A stretch of DNA of 64,000 bases from a phage, in the sequence record PX068455.1; one strand, given 5' to 3'. The notes beneath the pieces are model-generated. The model did no database searches. It was given only the letters and a program-made list of their open reading frames with translations, and was not told the origin of the DNA. The translations under genes and the position numbers were made by a program. Every line of letters starts with the position of its first letter. The first letter of the stretch is position 1. Shown one piece after another: positions 1 to 10,539 of this stretch.

Positions 1-128
1 GGCGGACGAAATGGGAATACTTCTCATTCTTATAACAATTCTCAAATATCAAGGCAGTGAGGCAAATTAATAGGTGAGGCCGTTCACACAGTGGCACAAC
101 ATTTGCAACCTATCTTGTGTGGAGGAAT

Positions 129-162
129 GAGAATACCTATCATTGTGAGAACCATTATCATT
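129..162. repeat. Two tandem copies of 16-bp motif GAGAAnnnnTATCATT
   Basis: gagaatacctatcatt and gagaaccattatcatt read directly; same motif recurs near 12357 and 12493. Confidence 0.5.
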
Positions 163-434
163 ACGGGCAATTTAACATAATACCCATTATGCGCACCACT
201 GGCGATACATACAGGGATTGATAACATGAGTTACTGTTTACGCATATAACAATTATATTTCTTACTATTTGTGTGGGATATAGTTAGCAACCAATAGATT
301 AGATATTGACCTGCAGACTTCTGACCGTCCAGACGTCTAAACGCCCACACACCAAGGGTTATACATACATTCCTGAATGTAAACAGGGCCGCAAAAATGC
401 TACCATACCAGTTTGTAAATTTTTCATGCAGCAC

Positions 435-546
435 TTGACAAAGAGGAGAAAAACTTGTCTGACACTTTTGCCACTTTTGACACTTTTACCTTTGACACAA
501 TGTCACACAATATGCCATAATCTGACACCTTATACACTTTCGACAC
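435..546. repeat. Cluster of imperfect direct repeats (T)TTGACAC / TGACAC
   Basis: About six copies (ttgacaa, ctgacac, tttgccac, tttgacac x2, tctgacac, ttcgacac) spaced 10-20 bp in a gene-free region. Confidence 0.5.
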
Positions 547-585
547 AATAACGACTGTTATTATTTCATGTTTCATTGTTCACGT

Positions 586-645
586 ATAGACTATTCCCGC
601 ATAGACTGTTTACGCCTGGATAGTTTACACCTTGACAGTTTACAC
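586..645. repeat. Direct repeats GTTTAC(A/G)C with TAGACT repeats
   Basis: gtttacgc, gtttacac x2 at ~15-bp spacing; two further copies near 1047 and 1090. Confidence 0.45.
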
Positions 646-663
646 AAAGATGATAAGCCATGA

Positions 664-889
664 CATTCGTTTGCATGATAACAATTAACAAGTTAATAAT
701 ATATGACATAATATAAAAGCAGGGCAACTATTAGCAGATCTATAGTTGCCTTGCTTGTTATGTCATGATTAACTAAATACAAGGCAACTATGATCTGATT
801 AATAGATTGCAGACAAACTATCACGGGGGTGATTGTTACTGCTTTTATATTATGTCGCGACTCCGTCGCGCCATGCCATTCGTTTGCAT
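664..889. repeat. Nested direct and inverted repeats (palindromic structure)
   Basis: 13-mer cattcgtttgcat at ~664 and ~877; 18-bp inverted arms gacataatataaaagcag (~705) / ctgcttttatattatgtc (~839); inner 9-bp inverted repeat ggcaactat..atagttgcc (~723-750). Confidence 0.5.
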
Positions 890-1504
890 AGTTGCCTTAT
901 TGTTACAGGTAAAACAATTACATTGTTAACTATTTCTTATCTTTCTCTTAGTCATCTAATGATTCCAGTCAGTATAGTTATGTGCAGTAAACATTAGACG
1001 ACTAAAGATTTCTCTGATTATAGTAACCTATCGTGACAATTTAGGACTGTTTACGAAAAATGTTGACACTTGAGCTGATTTATGTTATGCAGTTTACACG
1101 AATAATTATTTTATGCAGGTATTGACTATTCCGTTATTCTGTGGTTGGAATAAATACTTTGCAGGCTATAGAATGATGTGCGTACGTGAATTCTGAGATC
1201 TGGCGGCTATAGTTACACCCGATTTTTCACGTAGGACACGCTTTTGTGGTTGTGTAAGTGTATGACTTATAAGGGTTTTTAATTGTTGACAGTATACTGA
1301 AGATGTGTATCAGGTTAAATTTTGTGCAATAGTTGCATTACGTGCATTTTTGGAAGGAAAAACGTGTAAAAATGGCCCTGCTACCACACAATGAAAGATT
1401 ATGCAATAGTTATTTTCCATGTATATTTGTACAGTATGTGGGATTGATGGCTAGTCAATTATTCCACTTGCCAGGTAGGGCCGTTTATGGTAGGAGAAGA
1501 GCAG

Positions 1505-1532
1505 ACAAAAAGAAAGGGGCCTTTAAGCCCCT
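1505..1532 (-). terminator. Rho-independent terminator closing the minus-strand early array
   Basis: Hairpin aggggc-ctttaa-gcccct followed on minus strand by TTCTTTTTG; lies just 3' of the 1552 stop. Confidence 0.55.
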
Positions 1533-1551
1533 TGATAATTCAGTTAAGAAA

Positions 1552-1971
1552 TTATAATGATTCGTATATTTCAAAAATCCGATTTGCCAGGTCGTTACGG
1601 TAGCGGAATTTTTCCTCACGTTTGATCATAAGATCTTTATAGCCGTACTCTTTAAGCACTTCATTAACTTTATGGCGGCATACTTTCATATTATCCTGCG
1701 CGTCACCAATAAATCTGTTGCTATGGTGCATGGCTTTAATTTCTTCTTCCAGGACCAGGGCAACTATGCGGACCGGATCAAGCTGATAGGCGGTAACATC
1801 CATGCGGCATTGTAAACGGCTTTTTACGTCTGCCACCGGATATACTGCAACCTCTTCCCCGTCAACATTGACAATAATTAGTTTACCATCGATTTCGAAT
1901 CCTTTCGCCGCCGGACCGTGACAAAAAGCGTTATCAAAGCTATATGCCGGATTATTAGATTTAATGTTCAT
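1552..1971 (-). CDS. hypothetical protein (139 aa)
   Basis: ORF track; last gene of co-directional minus array, followed by terminator. Confidence 0.5.
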   Translation of the reverse strand: MNIKSNNPAYSFDNAFCHGPAAKGFEIDGKLIIVNVDGEEVAVYPVADVKSRLQCRMDVTAYQLDPVRIVALVLEEEIKAMHHSNRFIGDAQDNMKVCRHKVNEVLKEYGYKDLMIKREEKFRYRNDLANRIFEIYESL

Positions 1972-2115: not shown

Positions 2116-2379
2116 TTATTTGTTGCTCATCCAGTTTTCCCAAGCTGCCTGATAATCTGCCTCACTACGGCGGATCTCTTCTTGCTCTTCAAGGCGGATC
2201 TCTTCTTCCAGGTACCCCAAGATGTCAGCCTTTTTAGTCTGGCGTAGCATCCAGTCATCTTTTTTGCGAGTGAAGATCTTATAAGCTTTCTCGCAAACCT
2301 CTTTTTTGCTACCTTTCTGGACTTCAAGAACACGATAAGCCATATATTGAACTAATTTGAGCTGATCAAGACGTTTCAT
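2116..2379 (-). CDS. hypothetical protein (87 aa)
   Basis: ORF track; upstream TTGAAT-N17-TAAGAT promoter, GGGCC-aaaa-GGCCC leader hairpin, SD AAAGAGG. Confidence 0.5.
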   Translation of the reverse strand: MKRLDQLKLVQYMAYRVLEVQKGSKKEVCEKAYKIFTRKKDDWMLRQTKKADILGYLEEEIRLEEQEEIRRSEADYQAAWENWMSNK

Positions 2380-9248: not shown

Positions 9249-9446
9249 TTATTTGTCTTTATGGCGATATCGTTCTGCCTGTCGTTCACGTTCCAAAAGT
9301 AGGCCGGGCAATTTACGATCATAATGATTGCGCCAGATCTTCCCAAACCTTTTTGGCTTATTCAGTTTATTGTTACGCTGGCGGCGTTCTGGCAGCTCTT
9401 CGGAATCATGAGGGCGCTTTACAATTTTCTCGAAATTAATTTTCAT
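9249..9446 (-). CDS. small highly basic protein (65 aa), possible nucleic-acid binder
   Basis: ORF 9249..9470 trimmed to internal ATG (residue 9); Arg/Lys-rich. Confidence 0.4.
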   Translation of the reverse strand: MKINFEKIVKRPHDSEELPERRQRNNKLNKPKRFGKIWRNHYDRKLPGLLLERERQAERYRHKDK

Positions 9447-9789
9447 ATCTTCCCCCCTTGCTAACTTCAATATTGGCCTGAATAGCCCGGATGCGGCGCT
9501 TTATAACTTCCTGATCTGTGTGGTCGTATCCCCAAAAGTCTACAATTTTTGCGCCACCCGCTTCCAGGCGGTATAGTGTTTCCTGCATTTTGTAAGCCGG
9601 GATCGGTCGCGGTGTTACTTGGTCGCCTTCTTTATTTTTATACTTTATAATATAATCTTCGTTATCGTTGAATGCCCAAAATGGATATTCTGCAAGGGCG
9701 GTACTTCCTCTTTCCTTTTTATCCTGGATCTTATTTACAATTAAAGCCGTAGCAATAGCGCCAATAATAAAACTAGCCCCGCTAATCAT
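9436..9789 (-). CDS. membrane-anchored protein (117 aa)
   Basis: N-terminal hydrophobic helix ISGASFIIGAIATALIV. Confidence 0.5.
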   Translation of the reverse strand: MISGASFIIGAIATALIVNKIQDKKERGSTALAEYPFWAFNDNEDYIIKYKNKEGDQVTPRPIPAYKMQETLYRLEAGGAKIVDFWGYDHTDQEVIKRRIRAIQANIEVSKGGRYEN

Positions 9790-9865
9790 GTGTACTTTCT
9801 CCTTTCATGGTGTTAATAAATTATCTTTATAGATGGCCCTGCAACCAGGACCACCGAAAAAATAA

Positions 9866-10111
9866 CTATTTCACAATGCCTACAAAACAGATCCCGCCTT
9901 CACCTATGTAAGCAATATCGGTAACTTTATAATTTGTCAAGATCTGTTTATTTAGTTCATTAATAAAATCGGTCATTGCGTTGGTGTAGTTGTCTTCCAT
10001 ATCTAAGGCATAATCCCAGGCGTAAGCCTTTTTACGTCCGAAGCCTTTTACCATGATACGGGCGCTTTTGGTGTTGGTGGGCGCATAATATTTGGTGATT
10101 AGTGCTGCCAT
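9866..10111 (-). CDS. hypothetical protein (81 aa)
   Basis: ORF track; preceded by 45-bp module copy 2 and SD GAGGAG. Confidence 0.5.
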   Translation of the reverse strand: MAALITKYYAPTNTKSARIMVKGFGRKKAYAWDYALDMEDNYTNAMTDFINELNKQILTNYKVTDIAYIGEGGICFVGIVK

Positions 10112-10151
10112 GGTTTTAACTCCTCATTAGTTCAGTGTTAACAGTGTAAAG

Positions 10152-10196
10152 TTTACTTTATTGATGGCCCTGGAGTCAAGGCCATCTAAAAATAAA
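10152..10196 (-). promoter_or_regulatory. Conserved 45-bp promoter/operator module, copy 2
   Basis: Identical to copies at 6434 and 10773; TTGACT-N18-TAAACT on minus strand. Confidence 0.5.
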
Positions 10197-10197
10197 T

Positions 10198-10539
10198 TTA
10201 CTCGTTTTCTTCCAGCTCTGAAAGCTCTTCTTTCACTTCTTCGAGCTCTGTCTGCAATTCTTGGTACTCTTCATCGTCCTCAATATCCAGGCTGTCGATG
10301 TAGTCGCTAAATCCGCAGCGGTAAGCGATAGGATCTAGCTCCTTGAGGATACGCGACGGAAGAAAAGAAATGTTTCCGATCATAATTTCGCCGTAGATCT
10401 CGTCTAACCATTCATCATAGTTTTCGTCGTACTTGTCCTCGTCGATTTCAAAGTTATCGATCTTGTTCTCAAGGTCTGCGATCTGTTTTTTCAGCGCGGC
10501 GATCTGCATAGCTTTTTCTGCGGCGGTCATAGTAGTCAT
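10198..10539 (-). CDS. highly acidic coiled-coil protein (113 aa), possible DNA mimic
   Basis: Very high Asp/Glu content (EEVKEELSELEENE tail); own promoter and leader hairpin. Confidence 0.5.
   Translation of the reverse strand: MTTMTAAEKAMQIAALKKQIADLENKIDNFEIDEDKYDENYDEWLDEIYGEIMIGNISFLPSRILKELDPIAYRCGFSDYIDSLDIEDDEEYQELQTELEEVKEELSELEENE

Follow-up and report, generated by a model that had tools for sequence, protein, structure and literature searches.

The DNA analysed here is a 64,000-nucleotide (nt) stretch of phage sequence (record PX068455.1; hereafter the window), and our subject is the repeat-dense, gene-free segment at its left end, which an initial annotation made from the sequence alone had offered as a candidate pac site, replication origin or genome terminus. 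Positions 1-1600 are 100% identical to positions 1-1600 of the record of Escherichia phage ECP2309 (PP464953.1; 136,863 bp), an rV5-like Vequintavirus, and a similarity search with these 1600 bp gave matches in 120 phage records, every one of them a vequintavirus. In the phage, the segment belongs to a gene-free box of ~3 kb (record positions 135443-136863 plus 1-1551) flanked by two convergent gene blocks, of which the minus-strand one extends to 1552 and the plus-strand one, at the far end of the record, stops at 135442. The segment had been described as a region of 1.5 kb free of open reading frames (ORFs); it is indeed non-coding, but this extent is that of the half of the ~3-kb box left by truncation at the edge of the window. 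Three ORFs that had been described as low-complexity translations of the repeats (231..434 on the minus strand, 306..551 and 1333..1557 on the plus strand) are present, but in the majority of 12 close relatives their reading frames are interrupted by frameshifts or stop codons, which indicates that the region is non-coding.

The last 459 bp of the ECP2309 record (136405-136863) are 100% identical to window 1-459, and this segment is thus a 459-bp direct terminal repeat (DTR). The ends of the repeat recur as record ends in related phages: the first base of the EdH4, HdK5, YN3, bov10K2/bov phage and Gotham records is window position 1, the repeat_region 1..459 annotated in the Gotham record ends, once aligned, at window 459, the Pr121LW record begins with the reverse complement of window 459..1, and the ECP2303 record starts at window 460 and ends with the repeat. 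Altogether, one of the window positions 1, 459 and 460 serves as a record end in at least eight independent depositions, and the length of the DTR is constant, at 457-460 bp across 13 genomes. EdH4 and HdK5 are reported to have 458-bp terminal redundancies (Korf et al. 2019, PMC6563267) and Gotham has 459-bp repeats with a single packaging start (Dias et al. 2020, PMC7471380); the comparison with the termini of related phages that the initial annotation had recommended as a check thus placed this repeat, 458/459 bp long, on identical nucleotides in all of these phages. These data show that the virion DNA has its left physical end at window position 1, that 1-459 is the terminal repeat and that 459/460 is its inner boundary. 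Of the readings first offered, that of a genome terminus is upheld by the exact repeat, the shared record ends and the published termini of sister phages. Since a 458/459-bp DTR with fixed ends had already been published for the genus, the terminus as such is not new. Window position 1 is also the exact restart point of a 523-bp duplication in the record of CM1 (Shigella phage, MK962749.1). This duplication is a perfect tandem of the DTR plus 64 bp of array (positions 1601-2587 of the retrieved stretch) and almost certainly an assembly artefact. The features of the left half of the box are collected in Table 1.

Table 1. Features at the left end of ECP2309, in window coordinates
Feature	Position	Strand	Remarks
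Left DTR	1..459	+	Position 1 is the left physical end of virion DNA; 100% match to record end
Box 2, inverted copy GAATGAGAA	21..29	-	Inverted repeat
Box 1 CAAATATCA	43..51	+	Candidate recognition element for the left-end cut
Box 2 GAATGAGAATA	125..135	+	Also in the DTRs of KPP-1 (+397, +439) and Mt1B1_P17 (+56)
Box 3 ATTTAACATAA	170..180	+	In all four DTRs compared (+170, +214, +201, +265)
Right-boundary segment	412..459	+	TTTGTAAATTT 412-422, TTGACA 435-440, AAAGAGGAGAAAAA 440-453, CTTGTC 454-459
DTR inner boundary	459/460		In the other DTR copy, corresponds to the right physical end
Array A	460..546	+	~7-8 units of 9-11 bp ending ACAC or GCAC; hypervariable
Array B	576..645	+	15-16-bp units, core (G/A)TT(T/C)AC(A/G)(C/T); GTTTACRC at 608, 623, 638
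20-bp direct repeat GCCATG(A/C)CATTCGTTTGCAT, left copy	657..676	+	Flanks the hairpin module
Long multi-branched hairpin	705..856	.	Closing stem 705-722/839-856, 18-nt perfect arms
Alternative 15-bp hairpin	717..756	-	Followed by TTTATATTAT on the minus strand; terminator-like
Small GC hairpin GCGAC-TCC-GTCGC	857..869	.	Followed by GCCA
20-bp direct repeat, right copy	870..889	+	One mismatch to the left copy; 13 nt exact
Non-coding spacer	890..1513	.	87-96% conserved; lone array-B-type units 1046-1056, 1092-1099
ATAGTTGCA	1329-1337		Inside the spacer 890..1513
Intrinsic terminator	1514..1533	-	Closes the leftward gene block
139-aa gene	1552..1971	-	Last of the leftward block; inner edge of the non-coding box

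In the rV5 paper (Kropinski et al. 2013, PMC3606486), this ORF-free region where the gene blocks converge was drawn, unexplained, as a 'non-coding' box between genes 163 and 164. There the genome is taken as circularly permuted, on 3.6-fold Sanger coverage that predates read-based end analysis, and the authors had expected bidirectional terminators in the box and found none. The portions of the EdH4, HdK5, Gotham and rV5 papers that were available give the repeat length or the absence of ORFs only, and contain no mention of arrays, of an array that coincides with the boundary, of boxes or of a hairpin.

We compared the junctions of four lineages: ECP2309; KPP-1 (Mydovirus), with a published 514-bp DTR of PhageTerm class T7-type (PMC9862379); Mt1B1_P17 (Phapecoctavirus, Stephanstirmvirinae), whose record ends carry an exact 328-bp repeat in agreement with the 328-bp terminal repeat reported for Schickermooser (PMC6563267); and A73 (unclassified Vequintavirinae). 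The four junction DNAs are not alignable by BLAST, and a more sensitive similarity search gave no match beyond the genus Vequintavirus. The lineages share 16 9-mers that are common to at least three of the four, where 2.2 would be expected and none of 200 simulations gave more than 9. Box 1 is found as (C)AAATATCA or CAAAATATC at +43/+44 from the DTR start in all four lineages, and ECP2309 and KPP-1 carry further copies shortly upstream of the left cut. The inverted box-2 sequence GAATGAGAA has only two copies in the 64 kb, both within the DTR. Furthermore, the left boundary reads TGC(C/T)(A/T)^(G/A)(G/A)C(G/A) in all four (^ marks the cut), a purine-rich box, AAAGAGGAGAAAAA in ECP2309, lies 4-11 nt ahead of the right boundary in each of them, and TTTGTAAATTT and CTTGACAA stand at equal offsets in ECP2309 and KPP-1. 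Exact-pattern scans of IMG/VR were unspecific both for the boundary 15-mer AAAACTTGTCTGACA (2 of 97 loci were true relatives) and for the box-2 16-mer GAATGAGAATAATTAT (0 loci with all three boxes). Position-conserved DTR boxes in two subfamilies are a modestly new feature. The motifs that the initial annotation had singled out are, in contrast, the least constrained parts of the region, and the elements conserved between lineages are other boxes inside 1-459 that it had not mentioned.

The clustering of the short repeats was tested against 200 first-order Markov simulations of the 64-kb window. TGACAC occurs in exact form at 460, 478, 493 and 523 and with one mismatch at 469 (TGCCAC), 501 (TGTCAC) and 541 (CGACAC), always on the plus strand, and Tandem Repeats Finder detected a 9-bp period across 460-498. 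This density (4 exact copies in 70 bp, or 6 relaxed copies in 110 bp) was matched by 0 of 200 simulations; the TGACAC-type direct repeats originally noticed at 435-546 are real and non-random. GTTTACRC (R, A or G) is exact at 236, 608, 623, 638 and 1092, which are five of its six copies in the whole 64 kb; three of them form a 15-bp-period tandem at 604-645, and their clustering was likewise matched in none of the 200 simulations. Of the five copies previously placed in 586-1098, four are exact and the fifth is only a near-copy, GTTTACGA at 1049-1056. The window-wide totals of TGACAC and GTTTACRC are unremarkable, and only their clustering stands out.

The behaviour of the arrays was followed in 13 genomes, from which unit counts and lengths were taken, and in a junction alignment of ten vequintaviruses that comprised right-unique DNA, DTR and left-unique DNA. 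Array A has 4-11 units with a modal spacing of 9-11 bp and cores on the two strands in a ratio of 85 (+) to 19 (-), and array B has 1-9 units spaced by 15-16 bp with a ratio of 60 (+) to 1 (-), and is reduced to a single unit in EmilHeitz and CM1. Array A begins immediately behind the last base of the DTR: all aligned genomes read AAAAACTTGTC^TGACA at the boundary and diverge thereafter. Identity within the box is 93-100% overall and drops from 93-98% to 39-60%, with many gaps, at 451-650 in the ten-genome alignment, and the distance from the end of the DTR to the GATAAGCCATG anchor, which lies just before the 20-bp direct repeat and so spans both arrays, varies from 109 to 232 bp across the 13 genomes. 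This rapid turnover of copy number and sequence argues against the arrays being a specific recognition signal. They are probably accessory or neutral, with at most a role in spacing, bending or low-specificity protein loading. That array A begins exactly at the DTR boundary, in a T7-like layout, is modestly new. A reading of the TTGACA-containing repeats as sigma-70 promoters was rejected; their -10 elements are poor or unconserved, and the DNA that holds these sites is hypervariable or prone to insertions.

Inward of the arrays, the two copies of the 20-bp direct repeat enclose a palindromic module. Its inner stems use GGCAACTAT/ATAGTTGCC at 723, 742 and 783, a small ATCAC...GTGAT hairpin lies at 821-836, and the inner inverted repeat is 15 nt long at 93% identity (717-731/742-756). 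The nested palindrome described initially was confirmed in its 18-nt arms, but its inner repeat is 15 and not 9 nt long, and its direct repeat extends over 20 nt, of which the 13 reported are exact. Compared to shuffled sequences, the palindrome segment folds with z = -7.7 to -9.9 (705..856: -9.6 on the plus and -9.9 on the minus strand). Within the genus the stems are invariant and indels are found only at ~704, outside the closing stem, and ~757, in the apical loop; variants listed at '82% identity' differ solely by a loop insertion, and in the most divergent relative the substitutions are confined to the predicted unpaired apex. The inserts that relatives carry at the ~704 and ~757 hotspots are 30-100 bp long and themselves hairpin-forming, for example GGTGACCTTTGGTCACC followed by CACCCCTTCGGGTG.

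The hairpin has counterparts in KPP-1, Mt1B1_P17 and A73, in the form of a long-range inverted repeat whose arms (15-19 nt across the four lineages) differ in sequence by lineage and keep their complementarity. It lies 200-310 bp inward of the DTR and is followed by a small GC hairpin; GTCGC...TCGCGCCA also stands after the right arm in A73 and KPP-1. The z-score of the fold is -2.5 in A73 and between -8 and -10 in the other three lineages, and the plus-strand fold is at least as stable as the minus-strand fold in all four (in Mt1B1_P17, -76.8 versus -60.9 kcal/mol, with 5 versus 1 G-U pairs). FV3 lacks exactly window 677-869, with a single copy of the 20-bp direct repeat left at the junction, and is the sole phage with a deletion of the hairpin module among the 120 records. 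The hairpin is therefore conserved but dispensable, and such a conserved terminus-proximal hairpin is modestly new. The idea that the repeats and the palindrome serve as recognition elements is weakened by these data: both lie outside the DTR, the arrays are hypervariable and the palindrome is missing in a viable phage. The 9-mer GGCAACTAT or its complement is found five times (four of them exact), in both orientations, at 723-731, 742-750, 783-791, 888-896 and 1329-1337, with just two further exact copies in the 64 kb; this family could represent protein-binding sites rather than mere stem sequence.

We consider it probable that window 1-1551 is the left half of a 'concatemer junction' box of a phage with fixed ends and a short, exact DTR, i.e. 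with T7-type packaging. In such a scheme, replication would yield concatemers in which one DTR copy lies between right-unique and left-unique DNA. Terminase would recognise the DTR boxes, namely AAATATCA at +43/+44, GAATGAGAATA, ATTTAACATAA and the T-rich plus purine-rich segment 4-11 nt before the right cut, and would cut or nick both boundaries, TGCCA^GGCGGAC and CTTGTC^TGACA, after which DNA synthesis would duplicate the terminal repeat. Arrays A and B may then be an accessory counterpart of the T7 array, phased at about 1 and about 1.5 helical turns and free in copy number, and the hairpin at 705-869 may either block transcription or replication and so shield the packaging signals, or take part in replication or end duplication as a structure of single-stranded DNA or RNA. 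Several points weigh against this proposal or parts of it. The end positions of ECP2309 rest on the depositor's record and its agreement with sister phages, and the DTR boundaries of A73 were drawn from motif similarity and hence are not independent evidence. The DTR boxes could serve another end-linked role, such as injection, end protection or replication. KPP-1 and Mt1B1_P17 have no comparable tandem array right after the DTR, so that the arrays are not universal to the mechanism, and the absence of the hairpin from viable FV3 argues against an essential role for it. Moreover, we know of no established function for the T7 array, and the analogy therefore covers layout and not mechanism.

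The likeness to T7 lies in the short exact DTR and in a single-orientation tandem array that sits at, or close to, the inner end of the left repeat. In the T7 genome (NC_001604), which we analysed for comparison, the array at 175-341, after the 160-bp repeat, comprises ~12 one-strand units of 13 bp built on the core CCTAAAG; there is a similar array immediately inside the right repeat, and copies of the core occur within the repeat as well. ECP2309, whose array at 460-546 has an ACAC core, differs in that the right-unique side has no TGACAC array, and hence no mirror array of the same core, and in that no exact TGACAC copy is found inside DTR 1-459. It is also a 137-kb myovirus whereas T7 is a 40-kb podovirus, and its second array and long hairpin are without counterpart in the first 420 bp of T7. 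The T7 arrays were reportedly named SRL and SRR by Dunn and Studier in 1983. T7 end processing involves pausing of the phage's own RNA polymerase at the junction; to our knowledge rV5-like phages encode no T7-type phage RNA polymerase, and the polymerase-pausing mechanism is therefore not applicable to them as such.

Were the genomes instead circularly permuted, as assumed for rV5 in 2013, the box would hold a headful pac site at which one initiating cut is followed by processive filling to give permuted, redundant genomes. Repeats beside a terminase cut are familiar from such systems: hexamer repeats flank the cut in P1 pac, and lambda cosB and SPP1 pacL-pacR contain repeats that bind the terminase small subunit. 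The repeats of those phages are sequence-constrained, however, whereas no DNA in the box varies more than the cut-adjacent repeats of ECP2309, and its apparently fixed ends with an exact repeat are neither headful nor cohesive. With a repeat that is exact and constant in length, the same end positions in independent records, and published end analyses that give defined terminal repeats and one packaging start (PMC6563267, PMC7471380, PMC9862379), we regard headful packaging as very improbable, and the pac-site reading of the initial annotation did not hold up. A different doubt concerns the arrays, which might be neutral, slippage-prone tandem repeats tolerated in a non-coding buffer between packaging signals and genes. 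Their very fast turnover between phages with 93-100% identical flanks fits this, as does the lack of a tandem array at the equivalent place in KPP-1 and Mt1B1_P17, and we regard neutrality as possible, if doubtful. Nevertheless, all 13 scorable genomes have kept four or more units of array A, which invariably opens with TGACA(C/T) directly behind the DTR; orientation is strictly biased (85:19 and 60:1), the units repeat about once per helical turn, and T7 shows the same design. Together, these properties suggest selection for presence, orientation and phasing, and the retention, strict orientation and roughly helical phasing of the arrays point to a structural or low-specificity role.

A replication origin, which could coexist with the terminus, would employ array B as iterons, the 85-88% A+T stretch at 676-718 for unwinding and the hairpin or a cruciform to aid primase-helicase loading. 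The resemblance to iteron-type origins consists of 15-16-bp phased direct repeats, oriented on a single strand, beside the region's most AT-rich 40-mer (678-718) and a very stable inverted repeat whose position is kept in four lineages. Likewise, the phiOL and phiOR promoters of T7 are annotated near the genome ends; T7 has secondary origins at these sites, and phages often have redundant origins. Yet array B is down to one unit in EmilHeitz and CM1, so that a multi-iteron set is not conserved, the AT-rich stretch is an insertion hotspot that FV3 has lost together with the hairpin, and Pfam revealed no initiator-like gene among the three adjacent proteins. In addition, the rV5 authors found that skew changes only follow transcription direction (PMC3606486), and a more convincing candidate, in which a G-rich tract comes after a near-consensus promoter, is found across the DTR, outside the window. 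We consider the origin reading unsupported and quite unlikely. The hairpin module might also be a structured non-coding RNA, or a bidirectional terminator or insulator that keeps convergent transcription out of the DTR. Its folds are very stable on both strands, with the plus strand at least equal in four lineages, and on the minus strand a T-rich run comes after the hairpin at 717-756; the Murica record has a minus-strand terminator annotated in this segment and the Alma record one under its match to 677-869. The bidirectional terminators that the rV5 authors expected in the box would also be in keeping with such a role (PMC3606486). Against these points, the window and the right end gave no match to Rfam 15 at the gathering threshold, and a permissive search yielded only sub-threshold matches to microRNA precursors and generic hairpins (E = 0.008-0.2). 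The promoter-like plus-strand sites at 492-521, in the hypervariable array, and 685-712, split by insertions in relatives, are unconserved, no U-run follows the plus-strand structure, and the leftward operon is already closed by a good terminator at 1514-1533. This reading is unlikely in our view. Finally, a palindromic module flanked by 20-bp direct repeats, with insertion hotspots nearby and an apparent empty site in FV3 that retains exactly one repeat copy, calls to mind a miniature inverted-repeat transposable element (MITE) with a 20-bp target duplication. Instead of dispersed multiple copies, 118 of 120 phage records carry the module at 677-869 once each and always at the same place, and it has no match in 5,426 E. 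coli genomes; equivalent modules at the same position in three other lineages point to an ancestral resident element that was deleted in FV3. We reject a MITE-like origin as highly improbable.

The concatemer-junction reading leaves room for a bolder proposal, to which we give little credence: the hairpin and the position-fixed DTR boxes might together form an undescribed cis-acting 'end module' of Vequintavirinae and Stephanstirmvirinae, in which a single-stranded DNA, cruciform or RNA structure possibly primes or organises DTR duplication or end-proximal initiation of replication. If true, it would be a solution unlike T7 polymerase pausing, for large myoviruses without a phage RNA polymerase. 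Overall, this is an ordinary terminus with modestly new details. What was drawn unexplained in 2013 as the 'non-coding box' of rV5-like phages becomes a probable concatemer junction with nucleotide-level boundaries, and these boundaries aid the orientation and annotation of genomes, many of the 120 records being arbitrarily permuted, one having an artefactual duplication and several containing spurious ORFs. Vequintaviruses are widely used therapeutic and biocontrol candidates. The analysis tells apart DNA that is likely cis-essential (DTR boxes and boundaries) from DNA that is naturally variable or deleted, i.e. arrays A and B, the hairpin and the hotspots at ~704 and ~757, and the latter represent natural payload insertion sites. 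The boxes that are conserved in position across two subfamilies are concrete targets for terminase binding studies.

At the inner edge of the box, a terminator is annotated at the place equivalent to 1514-1533 in EdH4, Gotham and Murica. The 139-aa protein encoded next to it is ~89% identical in phAPEC8-like phages (Phapecoctavirus, another subfamily), where its gene is also the nearest to the left end; the non-coding DNA beside the gene is not alignable with that of phAPEC8-like phages. The similarity of this 'end gene' suggests, from sequence comparison, either exchange or strong conservation. With the 139-aa protein and an 87-aa protein (2116-2379, minus strand) as queries, tblastn reached the A73-like clade and the phAPEC8-like phages, and not Seunavirus, Certrevirus or phi92. 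Pfam searches with three adjacent proteins, the 139-aa protein included, gave no significant family and no DNA-binding or initiator candidate, and the record labels 'FtsK' ('DNA translocase FtsK', given to the 87-aa protein by several records) and 'Rel homology' found no Pfam support. The ECP2309 record also has a coding sequence at 1372..1557 (plus strand) that overlaps the terminator and lies within the ORF 1333..1557, whose reading frame is not maintained in relatives; for these two reasons it is probably spurious.

The right-unique half of the box, across the DTR (record 135443-136404), consists of ~960 bp of gene-free DNA that is 96-100% identical in 10 vequintaviruses, above the conservation of the DTR. 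It contains a near-consensus sigma-70 promoter, TTGACA-16-TAAAAT with TG (9571-9598 of the retrieved stretch, in which 9443-10405 is this half), followed by a ~280-nt G/A-rich stretch that ends in GAAGGGGAGGGGGGTTTC; the two could specify a non-coding RNA or a transcription-primed (R-loop) origin. The motifs on this side are CCTGAAGAG (four copies), CAAATATCA (two) and CCCCTGCCCCGCCGG (two).

Across the window, the GC skew changes sign at ~39 kb and reverts at ~46 kb. Transcription probably switches direction at these points, in line with what the rV5 paper states on the skew changes of rV5. Eighteen records labelled 'Campylobacter phage' (MG0656xx) are 92-97% identical to the region studied here; the two that were inspected are UNVERIFIED or unannotated, and the records are probably mislabelled or contaminant.

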